Part shown: one piece after another, positions 8,944 through 52,375 of the stretch | Layout of the letters: each line of letters starts with the position of its first letter | Numbering within the stretch: the first letter of the stretch is position 1 | Source of the DNA: Paraspadella gotoi | Taxonomy: Eukaryota > Animalia > Chaetognatha | DNA length: 64,000 nt | Direction of reading: 5' to 3' | Assembly: GCA_051294375.1 (NCBI GenBank) | Contig: CM119266.1 | Location: forward strand, 21,767,875 to 21,831,874 | Notes under the pieces: generated by a model | What the model was told of the DNA's origin: nothing | The model's input: the letters and a program-made list of their open reading frames with translations, nothing else | The model's database searches: none | Translations under genes and position numbers: made by a program

Positions 8944-11900
8944 GTTGACACTGTTGCGTTACGCGCTACGGCCATTTCGCCTCTCACCCGTGGGAGCGTA
9001 TCCTTGCGACGCTGGCCGCACATTTTCTCGCAGCCTCTCCTCTTCATGTCCTGTACGCGGCAGAAAACGGATGATTTCTCTTAAAATTCAGATACTTATA
9101 CCCTCGCCGCTCGTAAGCACAAATAATATAACGATGAATGGATGAATGCATTTTAACTATACAGTTCTTTCCTGATCCACGCCTATCCAGCCGCCAAACG
9201 GCATCGTGATATATCCATAGGACGAAAGAATCGACCTTCATCTTCGTTATCTGCGCGATGCCAGCCACATTATTTTTTTATCCAATTCATAAGTCTGGCG
9301 AAAGATGGGATCCAGGTTTGGCATAAATATTAAACTAAATATCCCCCCAATCGAGTTATTATGTTTCATACTATTATTTTTTAGATACATCAGAGCAGTG
9401 ACCGGTCGATATTTTATCCTCCTTTCCGTTCTCCGGTTTCATCCCACATACCTCTTCCTCGCCTCCTTTGCCTCGCTCCAGCCACGCCCTCCCTTTTTTT
9501 CTTCTACTCATGGATTTCTCCACAAGGCGTGGACATCGCTGGCGCAAATGATCTCTTTCGTCCGAACCAAGGAGGCAGTTGGTCGAAAAGTCTCTGAGGA
9601 ATGTACCCATTGCGTAAATTCCATCTCTATTTACTGGAACAAAAAGTAAACGTGATTACTGAATGACTTGCTTACTTAATAGTCCCTCGTACTGCTCGAT
9701 GCTTTGGTTCTGAGATGATCTATTCTATTCTCCCGTCTGGATTCTGTCTCATCAATTGTTTTGAATTCCGTCTAAGATCTATTGTTGTTTTGGGGGAATT
9801 TTTCAGTCTGCAATATCTAACAGTCGTGGTAAGCTTTTAGTTTTAATACTATGAAGTATGTATGTAATGTATTCATTTTTCACTTGAATATTGAAATGAA
9901 CTTCTAGGTTTTATCTCGGAATTTTCCACCGTTTTATCGCTAATCCGGCGTCAGCATATCGCACCCAGAAAAGTGAATGACGGCTGCCATTTCGGGAAAA
10001 GGATCTGTGATCCGAATCTGCCAAAACGAAGTAAATACTGCGAAATTACCTTATATTGCGAACTGTCATTTGATATTTGTTTAATATTCAGCTGATATCG
10101 TATTGTTTAGATCAGGAGTGCTTTGCTTATCAATTATCTCTGCCTTTCCTTCACGTCAACAATCCGACGACGAGTTAATTCGGTCATGAAAAGACGAGAC
10201 CCAGTTTTGCCAAGCATCAAGGTCGTCATGGTTCTGTCGCTCCTTTCGCGATTCACCGCCACAGTCACCTGATCCGGATTTGTGTTTCTTTTTTTGTTTA
10301 GCTGCAGTCTCTTATAGTGTTTTCTTTGAGACGATTCCACGTTGACACCTCTCCCCGGACGCCGCCGCTCACCCTGCCGTTTCTCCGAGCCTCGGCGGCG
10401 CTCGTGGGGTGGTGTGCATGTATCATTCCGTCATCTTGTCCGCCGAGAACTATCTAAGCCTCAGTCGTCCGTGGCGCCCTTCTTCTCTATCTCGTTCTCC
10501 CGAACTGCTTTTGAGGACTCGATGTTTCAAGGAACTTATTCTCCGGCGACAACAAACTCTGAGCGCGTCCATATTACGTCCCTGGTCTTCCCTCGCGTCG
10601 TCCGCTTCCGGAGCGCGGTTGTCCGTGTTTTCAAGGAACATTCATTATTACACTATCTCACAAAAGCGTCCACACTTTAATTAATTCTGCGTGTTCTCTC
10701 AACCCAGAGCCCGCTCGCGCTCTTTTCACTTGTCGCGTTAGTATTTCAACCGTACTGCTTCCGCTCCTCGACGTCGGGACGCAGATCTTGTACTTTCTAT
10801 CGTAACGCCGAACTTGTTACGGTATCGACGTTCATGACGAATACCTCCGGTCCCTGAATATCAATTTCCAGCCGCTTAATCACATGCCTTCGTCTGTGTC
10901 GAAACCGTAATCGGTCATGGACCTGTCTCGGAGCTCCTCTTCGCAGTGAATATTGCTACCTTAATATTTTGCGAGACAAGGACCCTTGCGGCCGAACAAG
11001 TGACGCGAGATGACATAGTGCGTAACTCTCGTGGAGAAGAAAACGCCTCCGCCCGCGTACAGTTTGGAAAAACACCTTGGCGATCCTTGTTCGCGCTAAA
11101 GATTCGTCAGTTTGTCATTTGTGGAGAAAAACTAAGCAACGATACCAAATTGAATGTGGCTACTCCCTTATGAAAATTTCGATTATTACCAAGTCACTGG
11201 GAGATTTCGTGTGCAAATTATCATCGCGTCACGTGAGTCTCCCGTTGGGTGTGCGTGGTCCGTTGCATATAACGGTAAGAATATTGGTTTCGGTAGTGTG
11301 GCTGAAGCCTAATTCCCCTCCCCTAGGACTCACTTTCCGCCCATTAGCTCGACAGCAGAATAATGTTTCAATAACTTTATTGAGTTTCCGGGTTCATCCC
11401 CTATCATGGTCACGCTTGTTTAGTGCTGATGGTGTCGGCTGTAAACAAACCAGTGAATGCGGTGTGGTCAGTGCCGGTTCAAAGTCTCTGAGGCGCCATT
11501 TATCGGGAAGAGCCTCACACCTCCGGGCGATCACACATGTCTTCCCATTGCCATAGTATGATGTATTCATTTTAGTTTTTAAATTGTGCTTTATCATTGT
11601 CAGGGTTTGACTTTCACCGTACCGCTAGCGACTTTGAAAGGAGGCTTTGTTTGCCTCTACCAACCGAGGTGCAAAGCGTTAACTGGCCTCTGGTGAGTCT
11701 TAGGTTGAATCTTGATCATGCAATGACCCGAGGCCCGTCTCGTTCGCCTTCAACAGCGCTCGTCGGCAAAAAAGGCGAGTTGGGATTGGATCCAGAGTCG
11801 CTAAATTAGAAGCAGGTTATTACATTTGCCGATTATATTGTTAGAAAGATCAATATCGATTTCAATAATTTATATTGATATGTTCATATTCATTTCCCCA

Positions 11901-12790
11901 GATGGAATGAAACTTTTGCCTCTCTGAAAGAGACCTTCTTCGACTATCTCGCTTCGCTCTTCGAATCCGTCGCTCCGAAAATCGTTGGACGCCTTATGGT
12001 CTCATTCGATTCTAAAGCAACCACGGAATGGGGGTGCTTTGGCGATGACATGCGCTTTCCACAAGCACCCGGCCGATTGCCCTGAACGTCTCGCGAAGAG
12101 TTTTCCCATGATGCTGTATCCTTCAGTCGCGGAAACTTTTCGCGCTAGACAAAAACTATATCCGTAAACGGATCGCAGCGTCTCGAGGATGCGTCTGTTC
12201 CTGCGGGCCGTCGTTTGTGCCGCGTCGCGTTCTCGCCGACGTCTTAAAACTAGTCCGGCGCTTCGAGGCGGCGTTACAGCTGGGCAAGAATCTCGTTGGT
12301 TCCCGCCGTTCGCCGGCTCTCTGGCGTTTAACGCCCACGCGGCTAATATCGTCACGCACTCTCTCGCCACGGGCTCAACGACGCCGCTCAGAGCCGTACA
12401 TTCTCTCCATTGCGCTGACCGTGCATGGAACTGGCGCAGAAAGACGCACGACGTACGAACCTTTACGTTCTCCGTGACATGCCCCTTCGATCGACTCGTC
12501 GGAACAGAGGCACGCTTCTTTTATGGAACATCTCATATCTCCGCAATCTCCATAGTCGCTGCCCTTACTCTGCTCGCGTCACAGCCTCCAGGCGCTAATA
12601 TTCCCTCGTCGGCGATTCAGCAACGCTCGAACGGGTTGGCTGAGTCGTCCCGCGACTCTTCCACTTGACGGTGATCGTCGAACTCTCATCTGATGGCCGC
12701 GCTCCGCCGGAAGGCCATCTCGCCTCAAAATCCACTAGGCTGAAACAGCATATCGCGTCGATCTTAAAAAGTCGCGGAAACAACAGAGTG
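8944..12790 (+). pseudogene. Frameshifted copy of HMGCR inside the noisy duplicate (probably artefact)
   Basis: Fragments [18 protein letters not shown] and [10 protein letters not shown] match 20853-24454; introns are retained. Confidence 0.35.
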
Positions 12791-12870
12791 ACGTCGTTAA
12801 TAGAATACACATAACATTATAAGCGGAATGATCCAAAGTAGTGCTGCCATGCAGGAAATTATTATTTTTT

Positions 12871-12895
12871 NNNNNNNNNNNNNNNNNNNNNNNNN
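12871..12895. other. Assembly gap (25 N)
   Basis: Run of 25 n, followed directly by an (AG)n microsatellite. Confidence 0.99.

Positions 12896-12927
<32 letters not shown>
12896..12927. repeat. (AG)n microsatellite
   Basis: Perfect dinucleotide run abutting the gap. Confidence 0.95.
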
Positions 12928-12929
<2 letters not shown>

Positions 12930-13268
12930 GTTACTCATGCGTGCGTGAGGGACCCTTTTAAAACCTTTCTTCTTTTTTGCCTATTTTCTGTTTCTTTGTT
13001 TTTCTTCTTTTTTTGTTTCGTGAACCGGCATTGAATCTGAGCTCACCGTTTTTCTAAAGAGTCACAAGGAACGTAAGGGTTTGAGAAATCGGAGAGAATT
13101 CTAAAAGGAAAACGCATTGCAGGTTCGGAGTATGAGAGAGTGGAAAGGACTCCGCTTTCGAGGAAGGCGGGGGGGGAGGCTGAACCCACGAACCAATTTA
13201 AGTCCGGCACTTCCGGATCTTATCGGCTGGTGGAATAAGCCGCCCGTGAAGCAATGGCGCCACAAAAT

Positions 13269-43363: not shown

Positions 43364-43872
43364 TCTCGGAGAGGCTGTTCATTCTAGAAAAGATGGTGTC
43401 TGAGAAAGCCCGAACAACGTGTTCCATGTGGTTCCAAGCTGTTGCCTTCGACGTTTCCTGGAAAATTGTTACGTTTCGTTTAAATATTGATTATTTTTCA
43501 ATATGTTGGCATTTCGTGTTATTGCGACAAATTGCGTAAATAAACTTAACTATTTCAACTTCGTTACTTTCGCACACACTTATGAAGGATGCCTGGAACC
43601 GATATCTACAATTATCGTAAATTTTAAATCGTTTTATAAACGTTAAAACGTGCACATTCTAATTTTAATTGTTTAATGATTTTCGTTATGCGTTAATTTA
43701 CATTAACCTCTTTCCTTTTTACATAGATTATCTGATATTATAATTATTGTAATTGACAGCCAAATTTTCTCATTTTTGGTCCCTTTAATAGTTTCAAAAG
43801 GAATCCTCTGAGAATTCTCCGTTTACCTTCACTTTTTTCCACCGTCGATCGTCGGCCTAAATAGACAGTAAG

Positions 43873-45186
43873 ATGGCCGACGAAGGAGCGGACACTAACG
43901 TCGAGATTTGGAAGATCAAGAAACTGATCAAGCGGCTGCAGGATGCTCGAGGGAACGGCACCTCCATGATCTCCCTCATAATTCCCCCCAAAGACCAGAT
44001 CGCCAGAGTGGGCAAGATGCTGGCCGACGAGTTCGGGACCGCCTCGAATATCAAGTCTCGCGTCAACCGACTTTCGGTGCTCTCGGCCATCACTTCCGTA
44101 CAACAACGGCTCAAGCTTTATAACAAGGTGCCCCCCAACGGCCTGGTCATCTACTGCGGCACCATTGTCACCGACGATGGAAAAGAAAAAAAGGTCAACA
44201 TCGACTTCGAACCCTTCAAGCCCATAAACACTTCCCTATATCTTTGTGATAACAAGTTCCACACGGAAGCCCTCACCGAGTTGCTCGCCGACGATAACAA
44301 GTTTGGCTTCATCGTCATGGACGGCAACGGGGCACTATTCGGAACCCTTCAGGGCAACACTCGCGACATTCTTCACAAGTTCACCGTGGATCTGCCCAAG
44401 AAGCACGGGCGCGGAGGTCAATCCGCCCTGCGTTTCGCCCGGCTCCGCATGGAGAAACGTCACAACTACGTTCGCAAAGTGGCCGAGGTGGCCACTCAGC
44501 TCTTCATCTCCAACGACAAGCCTAACATCACCGGGCTTGTCTTGGCCGGTTCCGCCGATTTCAAGACGGAGCTGTCCCAGTCGGACATGTTCGACGGCCG
44601 CCTTCAGTGCAAAGTCCTCAAGCTAGTCGACGTGTCTTACGGGGGCGAGAATGGGTTTAACCAAGCCATCGAATTGGCCTCTGAATGTTTGGCTAACGTC
44701 AAGTTCATCCAGGAGAAGAAGCTCATCGGGAAGTACTTCGATGAAATTTCCCAGGACACTGGAAAGTTTTGCTTTGGGGTCGACGACACTCTCAAAGCCT
44801 TAGAGATGGGAGCCGTGGAAATTCTCATCGTTTGGGAGAATCTGGAGATCATGCGTTACGTCCTCAAGAACCACGGGACGGATGAAGAGAAGATCCTCCA
44901 CCTGAACCAAGATCAGGAAAAGGACAAGACCCACTTTGTTGACAAAGACACTGGGGTGGAATTGGAGCTAGTCGAATCCATGCCTCTGCTCGAGTGGTTC
45001 GCCAATAAGTACAAATCATTCGGCGCCCAACTCGAGATAATCACCGACAAATCGCAGGAAGGTTCCCAGTTCTGCCGCGGATTCGGCGGGATCGGCGGCA
45101 TCCTCAGGTACAGAGTCGATTTTCAGACTCTTGAGCTCGCGGCCGAATTGGACGACCTCGATTTCGACGACGACGACGATTACTAA
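43873..45186 (+). CDS. ETF1: Eukaryotic peptide chain release factor 1; intronless CDS
   Basis: GTSMISL, TASNIKS, YLCDNKF and GRGGQS all intact; 437 aa. Confidence 0.98.
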
Positions 45187-46189: not shown

Positions 46190-46854
46190 AAGAACGAGGG
46201 AACGATGATTATTTACGGCTTAACCCGGACCATATATACATACAATTTATATATATACATATTACATAATACATATAGCGAGTAATTCTGAAGTATGTCC
46301 TCGTGAAAACGCACTTTTTTAGGTTTACTCGATGCTATTCAATTTTAAAAAGAAAGTTATTAATCTATTATTTAATTAAACTTTTAACCAAACAATTAAT
46401 CGCCAGTATTTTTCCGCTGGGAATTAGATATTTTTGATAGATGGACACTTTTGAGATACAAATAAAATTATTAAAAACTGTTATTCCAAGTTGAAGTCGT
46501 TTGTAATTGTATGTGTTATCATTATTACACGGTACATTCTAATAAAATGTACCTGGAGGATTTTCAGATAGTTTTAGAACAGTTTTAGAATAACTCGAGT
46601 TATCTCGAGCATTGATTTAATTATTTATCCTTTTGCGTCATTGGAATCCTTCGTGCCTTGCTCTTTTGTTCAGAAAAGTTGAATGAAAAAGCAACCACCC
46701 TTATTCTTTGAAAACAACCCCATCTTGTAGGGCTCTTAACGAAAGGAAGTTGTACGTCTTGAAATTTCTTTCATAAACATTAAAAAAATGAAAGAATTTC
46801 GGATTTTTATTCCCAACGGTTGGACTCGTTGATATTTTGGTATAAAGTAGAGAA

Positions 46855-48556
46855 ATGCAAATAACAAGCATGGAGTTGCAGTTGCTTCACTGCAGAGTTT
46901 TGGAATTATTACAAAACGTTGACTTTCTTTCGGCAAAGTGGAAAGTTTACACCGAGGAAGATAGAAATCGCGTCATTATCGAAAAAGACATAACGACCGA
47001 GATCGTTGACTGCGACGCCGAAGTCATCGGCATCGTCGCCGGCATCAAGACCGAAATATTTCCGGTTGATGAAAAAACGAGATCTACCTCAAACTTTATG
47101 TCCGATCTATCTAACGGCGCCCAATTAGCCGTGAAAACAGAATTCGACTGTGATACTTCCAAAGCCTTCGATTGTGCCCAACTTCCTTTAACGATAAACC
47201 AACACGAAAAAATTTCATTGCGTAAAAACCGCGTCGCTGAGAAAGGAAACTCGGAGCGTGTCCCCAGTAAATCATTTTGTCAAATTTGTCTCAAAACTTT
47301 TAGCAGTAAATCTTACCTTTTAAAACATCAACTCAATGTGCACAAGTTGGCGAATTTCAATGGCGAGGAAAATGACAACCACGTTGGAAATTTATCGATG
47401 CCCTCTGATTCTTCGATGGTCTGTCTTCATTGCGGCAAAGTCTTTAATAACTTTCACACTCTCAAGAACCATGAAAAGAGCGTACATGCCGCAAAGGACT
47501 TCCCTTGCGACGAGGAGGGCTGTCAAAAGCGATTCGTATCGCAGAAAAAACTCGAGGATCACGTGGAGTTTCATCACCGCGGTCTCACCGTCTCCTGTCA
47601 CGACTGCGGCAAGGAATTTCGTTCACGGAGTCGTCTCGTCGAACACGTGAATACGATCCATCGTGGAGTGAGACGCAAGTGCTGCTTCTGCGACAAGCAG
47701 TTCGTCAAGGCCCATAACCTGAACTACCACATGGACAACTCGCACTCTGAGTTACTGGATCCGTCGAGCTTCAATCAGATTTGCGATATTTGTGGAAAGG
47801 CGTTCACCTCAAAAGGAAGCCTCTATACCCATCGTTCCTCCAAGCACAAGAAAAAGATCCCCGATTGTTCCCATGTAAAATCGGAAGGCAACAGGGTCAC
47901 GCGAGAGAGCGTTTTCTGTCCGATTTGCGGGAGGGAGTTTAGCAAAAACAAATCCTACCTTAAGGTACGTACTAAAAAATACAAAAATCGCTGAAGCGGT
48001 GATCTCTATTTACTGATTTTACTTCCTCCAGCTTCATGTTCAAATGGTGCATTCGGGTCAGAAATGGAGGTGCGATTGCGGGAAGGATTATGGGTCTCAA
48101 GCCATGTTAAAGAGGCACGTGGAGTCCATTCACAAGGGGATAAGATACAAGTAACGTTATTTTCTTACATCTGATTGTGTGAAGTTATTATCTGTACCCT
48201 ACTTAATTTCTATTACCCTGTAAAGCTGTCCCTACTGCGACAAAACGTTTTCTGTCAAATCGACGTTAAAGGTCCACCTGGACGCCATCCATCGCGGCAT
48301 AAAACACACTTGTCCGATTTGCAACCAAAGTTTTGCACAGTCTGGCGATATGAAGATTCATGTCAAAGCTGTTCACAAGGGCGTCAAGAGCAAATGTGAC
48401 ATTTGCGGGAAAGAGTTTAACCGGGCTCCCGAAATGCGTAGACATCGAAAAGCCGTGCACAAAGCATTGGCAGACGTCGACGCTTCGGCGCCGGCGATTG
48501 GCTCTACTAAAGAGAACCTCGTCGATTGCGGCAACGTACTGTCCTTACAACAGTGA
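46855..48556 (+). CDS. C2H2 zinc-finger protein with a tandem finger array; 3 exons
   Basis: Repeated CxxC..F.....L..H....H units (CQICLKTF..HQLNVH, CLHCGKVF, CHDCGKEF, CDICGKAF, CPYCDKTF, CDICGKEF). Introns at ~47965-48031 and ~48151-48225. Confidence 0.88.
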
Positions 48557-48733: not shown

Positions 48734-51154
48734 ATGAGCGGAGAATCGGAAAAAATTCCAACCGAGGAGGTTAAATTTATACCGGGTGGATCTGAGGAAA
48801 AAATTCCCGCGAAAAAAGATCCCGAATCTGGTAAAGAGGCAGATTCCGATGCGTTCATCGGCTTGACCAAGGACGAGCTCCAGCGCTATGCCGACGACCC
48901 TTTCTGGGTTCGCACCCGAAAAATCCTTTTCATTCTCTTCTGGGTTGTCTGGTTCGGAATGGTTGCTGCCGCCATAATCATCATCGTCCTCTCACCCAAA
49001 TGTCCGGCTCGGCCGAACCAGAAGTGGTGGGAAACGTCTGTGGTTTACCGCGTCGACGTCCGAACCTTCAAAGATAGCAACAAGGACGGCCTTGGCGATT
49101 TCAAGGGCCTCGAGAGTGAATTGAAATATCTGAAGGGCCTCGGAGTTGGCGCCATCTGCCTGAGGCCAGTTTTCGAAACGGCAGGAAAGGACAAGTTGCG
49201 ACGGGACGTGGTGGATTTTAAGGCCGTGGATGGGGAGGTGGGCAATTTGGCGGAATTCAAGAGCTTGGCCAAGGCCATTCACAAGATGGGCATGAAAATC
49301 TTGCTCGAGTTCCTTCCCAACCACTCGAGCAAAGAGCATCGCTTCTTCGTGGAGAGTCGTCAGAAAAAGGCCGGCTACGAGAATTTCTACGTTTGGCAAG
49401 ACGCCGTGCCCAACGATTGGAAATCTGTGGACGACGCCAGCAAGTCCGCTTGGACTATGGACGACGATAGAAAGGCTTATTACTACCACGTTCACGCTGA
49501 AGATTTACCAGACCTTAATCTCAGGGACGAGGCGGTGAAGGTAACGTTTTAGAAGAGACTCATTACTTAACATGTCGAATAATTGAACCTAACTGTCATT
49601 AATAAATCTTTCACAGACGGAAATAAAAGAAGCACTCAAGTTCTGGCTCGTGGAGGAGCAAGTCGACGGAGTCCTTATCCCAGAGGTCGACCGACTTGTC
49701 GAAAGCGACAACCTGGCGGGCAATTACGAAGGCTGGCATCACCAAGCCGAATCCGCCGAATTCATAGCGGAGCTCAGAAGTGTTGTTGACGAAGTATCGG
49801 AGGATACTGGAAAGGATCGCGCTTTGATCGTCGACGTTGAAGATGGAAACGCGACCCAAAAGATCTTGTTTTACGGAACCGCCGCCAAGCCCGGCGCGCA
49901 CTTGGTTGTCAACGACAGGCTCGTCTCCGCTTTGAAGACCGATTGCAACGGCTCTGCGCCAACTGGCATCTGCATCGAAAAGCCGCTGCAGGAGTCGATG
50001 AAGATCATTCGTGAGTCCAATCAGAAGGAAAGTAACGAAGATCGTCCTTGGTACAATTGGATTCTGAGTTCGATGGACGGAAGGATCGCATCCAAAGTGG
50101 ACGCAGCCTACGTAGATGCGTTTAACTTGTTGATGCTGTCCGTTCAAGGAACGCCTTTTGTGAGTCTTCTCCTTGTTGGTAGTACGTTTTGACATTTATT
50201 TCTTTTTATCAATATTGTTCTGTTCCAGGTCTTTTATGGTGACGAACTTGGAATGAAGGACTCTAACGATGTTGACTACAAAGCCCTTTCAGTAATGCAG
50301 GTATATCACGTATTATGGTGGACTAAAATCCACCAACCGTTCATCAGCGGCCATTGGTGCTGGAGGCAAGTCATTCGCCTCCCAACCCAAAGGTCCGGGG
50401 TTCTAGCCCGGTGGTCGTCTGGCAGTTAAGAGGGACGGGGCGCTTAACCCGCCTGTAACTCGGTGTTACAGCCTGATCCGAAGCTCAGGGACTGCTTATA
50501 ATGAACGGTTCTGTCATTAACACTTATCGATAATTACTGTCTCTTCAGTATACGTATTTCATGATATTCAATGTTTTTCTTCAGATTATTATTTTGTATT
50601 TTTTTACCTTAATAATTATATTTCGTCCATACTCCAGTGGGACAGCAGCAAAAACGGCGGTTTCTCCAGCGCCTCGACTCGCTTCCCCGTCGATCCTGAT
50701 TACGCTACTCTCAACGTCAAATTCCAAAACGCAAGAGGAAATGACGATTCTCGTCTCAACGCATTCAAGACGATCGCCAACCTGCGCAAGGAAAACTCCT
50801 TCGCCTACGGAGATATCAAGGTTTACACGGCCAATCAAAAGTTGCTCACTTTCATTCGCCACGCCAAAGGTCATCCAGCGTATTTCGTCGCGATCAACTT
50901 TGGCGACAAACCTGCGACGGGTAGGGTCGAAGATTCCATAAATATTACAATTTTCATTAATTTCTTTCTTTACTTCTTTTTCAGCTCCTGGCGAGAATTT
51001 TGACGTGACCGACGTTCCCGACGCTTGTGAGGTCGTGGCGACGACTTCGGGCGTCCACGAAGGGTTTAAAGTCGGGTCGGTGTTCGATCCGAAGAAGATC
51101 CACCTTCTGTTGCAGAAGGGGGACGGAATCGTTGTCAAACTCGGCCGGAAGTGA
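48734..51154 (+). CDS. SLC3-family heavy chain of heteromeric amino-acid transporters (CD98hc/rBAT-like); multi-exon
   Basis: FIGLTKDELQRYADDPFWVRTR, a single TM, and SPKCP (light-chain disulfide Cys). The GH13-like ectodomain has VDGVLIPEV in place of catalytic VDGFRxDA, so it is non-catalytic. Confidence 0.9.
50335..50510 (+). mobile_element. SINE-like intronic element: tRNA-Gly-like head (50347-50418) plus twister domain, closed by a 10-bp inverted repeat
   Basis: Acceptor stem GCGGCCA/TGGTCGT, CTCCCAA anticodon-loop-like segment, T-arm CCGGG/CCCGG. Flanks are AACCGTTCAT (50335-50344) / ATGAACGGTT (50501-50510). Confidence 0.7.
50422..50495 (+). ncRNA. Candidate twister ribozyme, P5-type permutation
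   Basis: P5 GCAGTT/GACTGC; GA-CGG; UAA; GC; P3 CTGTAAC/GTTACAG; P4 CCTGA/TCAGG with loop TCCGAAGC. Both pseudoknots can form (CCG:CGG, GC:GC). Confidence 0.72.
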
Positions 51155-51656
51155 ATGCCTTGGACGAAATTCTTCCTAGTTAGTCGCTGACCGATTAGCT
51201 GGACGGATTACGGAATTCCAGACACTTGCATGGGCTTTTTTGTGTGTGTGCGCCATTTATCAAAACTTCCGATTCGGATACTTTTTTTTTAAATTTTGGT
51301 CTTTAGTTTTTTCCAGATTTTTTATTAGCTAATTTTACACGCTATATAACTCTATTAATTAATGCATGCTGAGGCTTTTATTTTTCATACACGTAGGTGT
51401 ATTTTTATTTTCGCAATTATTCCACCTGTGTCACTAGTCCTTGGTATTACTCTTCATATGGATTTGGACCAAATTTATCTCAAATACATATATTTTTAGT
51501 TTTTACTTCTCACTCATATATTCCAATGCAGATTTTTCCCACAGAGTTAAAACTTTAAAAAGTCGACTATGCTCGTCTCCATTGATAGTTGAATCTGCAT
51601 TCGTTTCGTTTCACCAAGTTTTCCTCGTCTTGCTCGATCATTAACTTTTAAATAAA

Positions 51657-52375
51657 ATGGCCAACGCTTTGGAAGGCTTCGTTAATCATTCCGTATCCGT
51701 CATAACTGCTGACGGTCGAGTTATCATCGGTACTTTGAAAGGTCTGTGATTGACGTTATATAATGACTGTTGTATCGTTTGTATGAATATGTAATATAAC
51801 TTTATTTTTATAGGATTTGACCAAACGATCAACTTGATTTTGGACGACAGCCACGAGCGCGTCTTCAGCTCATCTGAAGGAGTAGAACACGTAGTTCTCG
51901 GCCTTTACATCATTCGCGGTGACAACGTCGCTCTCATCGGAGAGATCGATGAGGCGAGTCTTGAATTTTTGTAAAGAAACATGATAATAATGAATGAATG
52001 TCATTCATTGAATGATAATAATTACCATTCACCCCGCAATACACCAAAATAAACTTGCTTTCATAAATCGCACATCTAATGCTATCTTTCTCTTGCACTC
52101 TTTTGTTACATTTTGCTTCGGAATTGGCAGTCTCGTTTGATATTTTAATCAGTAACATAAATGGATAATTTTTATATTGGTTGTACCAATTTCATAAAGA
52201 AATAATATGAGCTAATATAAACAAAATAAATAAACAATGAATACCAAATATAGAATTTCTCACTGGTTTGCGGTACTACGAATTAAGTTCCTGCCCCTTT
52301 TATTTTCAGATTACCGATAAACAGTTGGATCTCGGGGACATTCGAGCAGAACCTCTCAACCCCGTCGTTCACTGA
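51657..52375 (+). CDS. LSM8: U6 snRNA-associated Sm-like protein LSm8; 3 exons, second intron GC-AG
   Basis: MANALEGFVNHSVSVITADGRVIIGTLKG|FDQTINLILDDSHERVFSS..GLYIIRGDNVALIGEIDE|ITDKQLDLGDIRAEPLNPVVH*. Not captured by the ORF track. Confidence 0.93.

Follow-up and report, generated by a model that had tools for sequence, protein, structure and literature searches.

A twister-type fold in the long terminal repeat of a Helenus-type element of Paraspadella gotoi: a candidate animal retrozyme

We analyzed a stretch of 64,000 nucleotides of Paraspadella gotoi DNA (contig CM119266.1), hereafter the window, in which all positions below are counted. The feature at 50314-50547 is almost certainly the solo long terminal repeat (LTR) of a small, non-coding terminal-repeat retrotransposon in miniature (TRIM) of the Helenus type, and it carries a variant of the type-P5 twister fold. 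Our best reading, a model to which we give about an even chance, is that the family is an animal LTR retrozyme, in which the twisters of the two LTRs would cut out a 418-nt unit, possibly circularised, for copying by a Gypsy-type partner. If true, the family would be an animal counterpart of the plant retrozymes. It joins the retrozymes and the Helenus TRIMs, with a different class of ribozyme.

Identity and boundaries of the element

The ends of the 234-bp unit were set by comparing the flanks of its genomic copies, and the following features were placed in the window.

50310-50313, plus strand: target-site duplication (TSD), 5' copy, GTAT (4 bp), read from the sequence
50314-50547, plus strand: solo LTR, 234 bp, termini TA...CA, Helenus-type TRIM; the ends are common to the family copies, and the unit borders the ~184-bp internal part in full elements
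50316-50335, plus strand: hairpin, 7 bp, near the LTR 5' end, from the sequence; present in the fold of the predicted unit
50335-50344, plus strand: internal inverted repeat, 5' arm (partner 50501-50510); a predicted helix, not an element boundary
50501-50510, plus strand: internal inverted repeat, 3' arm, from the sequence
50548-50551, plus strand: TSD, 3' copy, GTAT, from the sequence

The initial annotation had drawn the element from 50335 to 50510, closed by a 10-bp inverted repeat instead of a TSD. The inverted repeat does exist, but it is internal, inset 21 and 37 bp from the LTR ends, and the element flanked by the GTAT duplication runs from 50314 to 50547. In the fold of the predicted unit the repeat forms a helix that closes the tRNA-plus-ribozyme domain; one position of its arms differs in 84 of 92 distinct copies, a sample biased toward copies near the queries.

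A genome search with the element gave 2,217 first-look candidates, and the 40 that were scored showed 98-100% identity across the whole query. Most copies found with the LTR query were single units, and several loci consisted of a unit, a spacer of ~184 bp and a second unit. With the spacer as the query, the genome yielded 840 candidates; LTRs lay on both sides in 28 of 30 fetched loci carrying the internal part, and 22 of these 28 two-LTR loci had a 4-bp TSD. The same duplication was present in 23 of the 28 scorable loci from the LTR search (30 examined, two without recognisable ends), the two sets of loci overlapping by at least two. Full elements are 624-660 bp long, non-coding, and roughly 650 bp in their LTR-internal-LTR arrangement. 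The spacer starts with a primer-binding site (PBS) of 13 nt, complementary to the 3' end plus CCA of the genome's own tRNA-Trp, and ends before the 3' LTR with a purine tract (the polypurine tract, PPT). We regard the TRIM family as young because 13 of the 28 two-LTR loci have two or fewer mismatches between their LTRs; the intronic copy in the window is probably an ordinary young insertion.

Helenus comprises animal TRIMs with a tRNA-like LTR and a 4-bp TSD (PMC10886601). Like the Helenus TRIMs/TRIMp3 described by Kojima (2024, PMC10886601), the window family is shorter than 1 kb and non-coding and has two LTRs with tRNA-like sequence, a PBS, a PPT and a 4-bp TSD; solo LTRs, tandem arrays and a presumed Gypsy partner are further shared features (PMC10886601). 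The window family differs in that its LTR starts with TA, not TG. Judged from its sequence, the element is a Helenus member on every feature testable here.

The LTRs of the window family (50314-50315) and of a related family, F4 below (L128, L137, L138), start with TA and TC, respectively, and not with TG, right after a PPT that ends in TG, and their TSDs are still clean 4-bp duplications. Tandem arrays of three LTRs with a spacing of 418 bp were observed at L057 and at G000:C1:19767527-19768413.

A variant type-P5 twister fold

The twister elements lie directly behind the tRNA-like part of the LTR.

50422-50495, plus strand: type-P5 twister fold, from the sequence and from covariation across five families
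50422-27/50490-95, plus strand: helix P5, from the sequence
50430-33/50448-50, plus strand: helix P2, three pairs with one bulge, from the sequence
50434-35, plus strand: catalytic G-A, from the sequence
50436-38/50478-80, plus strand: pseudoknot T1, CGG:CCG, from the sequence
50445-47, plus strand: UAA, from the sequence
50445-50446, plus strand: predicted U/A self-cleavage site, from its position in the twister model (PMC5408937)
50451-52/50483-84, plus strand: pseudoknot T2, from the sequence
50453-59/50465-71, plus strand: helix P3, 7 bp, from the sequence
50472-76/50485-89, plus strand: helix P4, 5 bp, from the sequence

All the twister elements that the initial annotation had listed are present in the sequence, and the U/A cleavage site that it had predicted fits the twister model. 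The P4 loop of the window copy reads UCCGAAGC. The G-A, UAA and L4 letters occur in P5 order, as in a type-P5 twister (RF02684; PMC5408937), with which the fold also shares the two pseudoknots, P2, P4 and the optional P3 and P5. It differs from that type in having a 6-nt palindrome as P1, which cannot close a normal hairpin in cis, a bulged P2 of three pairs, a CGG:CCG T1 and no Rfam match. We filed the fold as a variant of the type-P5 twister because the in-cis P1 is missing yet P1 has been reported to be dispensable.

A hand-made descriptor, consisting of the G-A, UAA and L4 letters plus complementary T1, T2 and P4, gave one match in the window versus one match over 200 block-shuffled windows, which is above chance. 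The core pattern matched the genome 1,486 times, compared to 0 matches for the reversed control, in agreement with the earlier proposal that a P5-type twister sits behind a tRNA-derived head in a retroelement of high copy number. The pattern with the canonical GGG:CCC pseudoknot and a 6-nt P1 segment had no match in the genome, and the pattern of this twister type had none in viral contigs. Among the 92 copies the P3 loop varies at 16.5% and the P3 stems at 0.6-0.8%; the window copy has a letter other than the most frequent one at six positions, all outside the core. The fold of a lone copy is only mildly stable (z -1.62).

Natural twisters have been reported to tolerate imperfections of P1 and P2 without lower cleavage, changes to the pseudoknots or catalytic letters not being tolerated, and ~94% of the natural twisters tested cut (PMC11662667); a twister without P1 cut at a near wild-type rate (PMC5408937). 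Both the pseudoknots and the catalytic letters are intact in the window family, and we predict with high confidence that the ribozyme of the family is active.

Sister families and covariation

Five repeat families of the genome, the window family (F1) and four others (F2-F5), carry the fold with different letters. F2 is a tandem repeat of ~340 bp with no obvious tRNA head (L038:1103-2078, L031, L040); its P1 is AGGCCT and its Rfam Twister-P5 score, 27.5 bits, is below the cut-off. By its sequence F2 looks like a non-LTR twister retrozyme. F3 (592 matches, control 0; L086, L092, L095) is a second TRIM headed by a tRNA-like part, with a PBS almost identical to that of F1, TG...CA LTRs of ~282 bp and a unit of ~406 nt, and F4 is a third, with a tRNA-Trp-type PBS and LTRs of ~267 bp that start with TC (L128, L131, L137, L138). 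One complete copy of F5 was found, a tRNA-headed LTR-like unit with a tRNA-Trp-type PBS (L127, L144). F2 copies are interrupted by an F1 insertion at L009 and by an F3 insertion at L084.

T1 is CGG:CCG, UGG:CCA or GGA:UCC and T2 is GC:GC or AC:GU, and the two are combined independently across the families. Over eight sequences from the five families, 97.6% of cells pair versus 74.1 +/- 2.8% in shuffles, which are a generous control because the structure came from the tested sequences; the families are, in addition, related. Changes on both sides were found in 10 of 16 pairs, including T1, T2, P2 and P4, in each of which 100% of the cells are paired. Alignments slid as controls dropped to 15-55% paired. 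The G-A, the UAA and the loop AAG are invariant across the eight sequences, and the bulged letter of P2 varies among families with its neighbours staying paired. Across the five families both pseudoknots, P2 and P4 change in a compensatory manner and the catalytic letters are fixed. The earlier description of the CCG:CGG pseudoknot as a compensatory change, that of the P2 bulge, and the suggestion that genomic copies should preserve the stems and pseudoknots are all upheld by these families and the 92 copies.

A degenerate tRNA-like head

50347-50418, plus strand: tRNA-Gly-like head whose acceptor and T arms are intact and whose anticodon stem is broken, from relaxed ARAGORN and the Helenus definition (PMC10886601)

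The tRNA-Gly-like character proposed for this head holds for the acceptor and T arms and for the call of relaxed ARAGORN, which reads it as tRNA-Gly(CCC). The head is degenerate, its anticodon stem contains two C-C mismatches, and ARAGORN at its default threshold called no tRNA in the window; the Rfam scan of the region gave no tRNA match. A B-box-like GGTTC is present and the A box is degenerate. By analogy, the head is likely an internal promoter for RNA polymerase III (Pol III), although Pol III transcription from the head is described as unproven for Helenus too (PMC10886601).

The tRNA-like heads (window 50347-50418; L127, L128) keep the closing acceptor-like stem. RNase P or Z might also cut head-bearing RNAs, since this stem is kept.

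The palindromic P1 and the proposed pairing of two ribozymes

50439-50444, plus strand: self-complementary hexamer GGCGCT in place of helix P1, the predicted site of copy-copy pairing, from five families, a metagenome and folding

Six letters separate T1 from UAA in all five families. In the window copy they had been described as a minimal P1 loop and are better read as a self-complementary hexamer. GGCGCT, AGGCCT, CGGCCG and GGCGTC are fully self-complementary (G-U counted) and ACCGGG is so in its inner four letters only, the chance of self-complementarity being ~0.016-0.055 for each hexamer. A metagenome scan with the P1 letters left free gave seven matches, two of them complete twisters with T1, T2 and P4, at L147:395-436 and L150:61-105 (both on the minus strand), with P1 CAATTG and ATGCAT. 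The other five were dropped as chance, since P4 or T1 pairing was missing by eye. L147 scores 24.2 bits with the Rfam P5 model (E 0.11) and has no open reading frame (ORF) above 123 aa; it may be a 974-nt circle, because it has a 123-nt terminal repeat.

The palindrome points to pairing between copies because a hairpin needs no complementary innermost pair, whereas pairing between copies does. In folding calculations, whose energies leave out pseudoknots, the lone window motif favours a hairpin in which the strands of T1 and T2 are buried, and 7.7 kcal/mol are needed to reach the core-compatible form; two copies that swap strands gain 9.1 kcal/mol over a pair of separate core-compatible monomers and still lie 4.6 kcal/mol per core above the free fold. 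As a model, the palindromic P1 suggests pairing of two ribozymes, and on balance we think that this pairing probably matters. Gating by pairing could, the same model suggests, explain how the genome tolerates more than 1,000 self-cleaving motifs, some of them intronic. The results also suggest that Rfam overlooks P5 twisters whose P1 is stunted.

Pairing may be unneeded, given that P1 is reportedly dispensable and imperfections are tolerated. The twister could work as a monomer, a mini-twister without P1, in which case each sense intronic copy, that of the window included, could cut its host pre-mRNA and the palindrome would be secondary. This deserves serious weight but is unlikely. Deletion of P1 left a near wild-type rate (PMC5408937), imperfections of P1 and P2 did not lower the cleavage of natural twisters (PMC11662667), and the window copy keeps all core letters. 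A monomer does not readily explain self-complementarity across five different hexamers and two outside examples, however, and the lone copy is predicted to misfold. The host intron is, moreover, spliced in the sequencing run X1 (below), though the insertion may be absent there.

A proposed cycle and candidate partners

Each of the two LTRs contains the twister motif, and in L046 the two motifs are separated by 418 nt. Under the LTR retrozyme reading, Pol III would start at the head of the 5' LTR, and the two LTR ribozymes of one transcript would pair through their hexamers, strand-swapped, and cut at U/A. The 418-nt unit would be released with a 5'-OH and a 2',3'-cyclic phosphate, ends that an RtcB-type ligase of the host would join, as in animal hammerhead retrozymes. 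tRNA-Trp would then prime reverse transcription by a Gypsy-type partner, on which integration would likewise depend, as in the model put forward for plant retrozymes. A solo intronic copy is predicted to cut weakly, because it has no partner ribozyme in cis, and would leave splicing largely intact. Compared with 60 shuffles, the predicted 418-nt circle has a more stable fold (z -2.8), and the proposal that the circle is the template could, in our estimate, go either way. More tentatively, and at less than an even chance, animals may have true LTR retrozymes that captured a tRNA promoter and whose twister is switched on by pairing; their full elements would excise and circularise RNA and their thousands of solo LTRs would stay near-silent in introns, with the palindromic-P1 twister subtype recurring in tandem repeats and in unrelated metagenome contigs, one of which looks circular.

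An active ribozyme could also serve a linear cycle, in which mainly the 3' LTR is cut. The cut would supply the missing 3' end of the Pol III transcript and leave a terminal repeat of ~99 nt for LTR strand transfer, with no circle. We consider such a cycle fairly improbable. It fits the absence of a T4 run from the LTR downstream of the head (the first is at 50574), an absence that is not significant, as 820 of 1,000 shuffles contain one; 6 of 30 elements have a T4 run on the sense strand, in a scanned stretch that may include flank. It also fits the ordinary LTR mechanism described for Helenus and Cassandra (PMC10886601), the uneven depth over the unit in X1, and the occurrence of tandem arrays like that at L057 in Helenus elements with no known ribozyme (PMC10886601). 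Both LTRs, however, have the same ribozyme, and a swapped pair makes two active sites at once, removing the terminal repeat. Plant retrozymes solve this loss by circularising, and the stability of the predicted circle relative to shuffles likewise speaks for a circle.

For the partner that the LTR retrozyme would need, we found Gypsy-type integrase domains to be plentiful in the genome. L132 and L136 are LTR elements of 5.4-5.7 kb with a PBS and a PPT end as in the TRIM; L132 has reverse transcriptase (RT) and RNase H matches and a 4-bp TSD, and L136 has an RNase H match with integrase behind it. The reading frames of both elements are broken, and their link to the TRIM is a candidate only. 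Of 115 other tRNA-Trp PBS sites, 20 were fetched; two of these were long LTR elements that match RT or RNase H, and the long ORFs of L139 and L143 gave no match in Pfam. L133 is a 1.7-kb LTR element with a tRNA-Trp PBS and no Pfam match in two ORFs, possibly another non-autonomous family.

Host intron, RNA evidence and points against the retrozyme reading

50301-50637, plus strand: host intron of an SLC3A2-like gene, 337 nt (99 nt once the element and one TSD are subtracted), from the GT..AG joint in RNA contigs and Pfam

Pfam matches of the host gene to SLC3A2_N (PF16028) and Alpha-amylase (PF00128), together with the splice joint, confirm that the element lies in sense orientation in an SLC3 intron, as the initial annotation had it. 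The element was found in one sequencing run, X1, with X2 and X3 giving nothing. X1 behaves as RNA: four host introns, the element-bearing one included, are skipped at GT..AG. The host intron is spliced in the X1 assembly, and the window insertion may be absent from the X1 source. A self-trained coding model called 2 sense and 4 antisense among 57 genic copies and left 51 uncalled.

Several results weigh against the LTR retrozyme reading, in addition to the related families behind the covariation, the folding energies, the possible dispensability of pairing and the broken partner candidates given above. Rfam scans of 49000-52000 and 50300-50560, a check that the initial annotation had proposed, found no twister match on the window copy. 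Nothing in the genome exceeded the RF02684 gathering score of 37.6 bits, the best match being that of the sister family F2 (27.5 bits), and the same loose search gave matches in 13 of 14 control genomes. Summed over the X1 contigs, depth was mostly 50,000-110,000 for the LTR head and ribozyme, ~9,000-13,000 midway through the internal part and ~2,000 immediately beyond the LTR-PBS junction; contig depth is a poor measure, neither strand nor transcript ends can be read from these contigs, and X1 is a library of unstated type. The contigs span the predicted cut site, and many extend into flanking DNA. Because the LTR depth far exceeds the internal depth, abundant circles are not supported, and the pattern looks like read-through plus solo-LTR RNA rather than a dominant 418-nt circle. 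A joint in X1 that 'goes back 417' shows no circle, being equally expected from genomic LTR-internal-LTR DNA.

The twister fold might instead be a passenger from an ancestral repeat that no longer cuts, with a plain Helenus TRIM doing the moving. The missing Rfam score, the bulged three-pair P2 and the RNA contigs that span the cut site at high depth are consistent with this. It is nonetheless quite improbable, given that five diverged families have retained the catalytic letters and, through compensatory changes, both pseudoknots, that the stems are more conserved than the loop within a young family, and that nearly all tested natural twisters cut (PMC11662667).

The SINE-like family of the initial annotation, a tRNA-derived short interspersed nuclear element (SINE) or an inverted-repeat element with an internal ribozyme, has in its favour the tRNA-like head, the many single units and the inverted repeat, but it has next to no probability, as the 234-bp ends are fixed, the 4-bp TSD is constant, there is no tail, the inverted repeat lies inside the ends, and full elements with a PBS and PPT between two copies and TSDs outside both LTRs contradict it. 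A tRNA-derived SINE is a single unit with a tail, a TSD of variable length and no PBS or PPT, and the element departs from this. We dropped the ideas that the inverted repeat and the 5' hairpin mark a SINE, a miniature inverted-repeat transposable element (MITE) or a Helitron-type element, since TSD, PBS and PPT are present; we read the feature as the solo LTR of a TRIM.

Comparison with known systems

The LTR retrozymes of plants (Cervera et al. 2016, PMC4918200; PMC7761336) resemble the window family in having a ribozyme in each LTR, a PBS, a PPT, a 4-bp TSD and no coding capacity, as well as solo and multimeric forms and a dependence on Ty3/Gypsy elements that is presumed for the window family. 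They are described with a type III hammerhead, a tRNA-Met primer and a unit of 600-1000 nt, whereas the window family has a twister, an animal host, a tRNA-Trp primer, a tRNA-derived head and a 418-nt unit. Circles have been shown for the plant elements and are only predicted for the window family. The element would work like an LTR retrozyme and is not a member as defined, because its ribozyme is of the twister type and not a type III hammerhead. Animal retrozymes are stated to lack LTR, PBS and PPT (PMC4918200; PMC7761336).

Dimeric hammerheads of newt and axolotl retrozymes and of Penelope-like elements (PMC7229834, PMC6765202) likewise have a stunted helix, a palindromic loop and tandem or paired repeats; they act mainly as dimers and serve as the precedent for the pairing model. 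They belong to another ribozyme class and a non-LTR context, and their dimer activity has been measured, whereas that of the window family is only predicted. The twister variants at Perere-3 of Schistosoma (PMC8501958) are also tied to retrotransposon RNA; there the element is autonomous and of the non-LTR kind, its 5' end bears the twister, and the target duplication completes P1, whereas the twister of the window family lies inside the LTR of a TRIM.

The available main text of the Helenus paper (PMC10886601) never mentions twister, and ribozyme occurs there only in the title of a reference; a few twister loop words, looked up in its supplement, turned up no twister context, though words split across lines would escape. 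In the open-access literature we found no twister in LTRs or TRIMs, no dimeric twister with a palindromic P1 and no link between twisters and Helenus. The family offers a concrete role for genomic twisters, and dimer gating, known for hammerheads, was not found for twisters in the literature searched. By eye, Helenus-2_SyJa-LTR and Helenus-2_SyUm-LTR have a hammerhead-like core after the tRNA part, and a tRNA-Trp PBS, a core that goes unmentioned in the available text of PMC10886601.

Neighbouring genes

A C2H2 zinc-finger gene lies upstream of the SLC3A2-like gene, at 46846-48556 on the plus strand. Also upstream, at 43861-45183 on the plus strand, is an ORF whose product we take to resemble the release factor eRF1.

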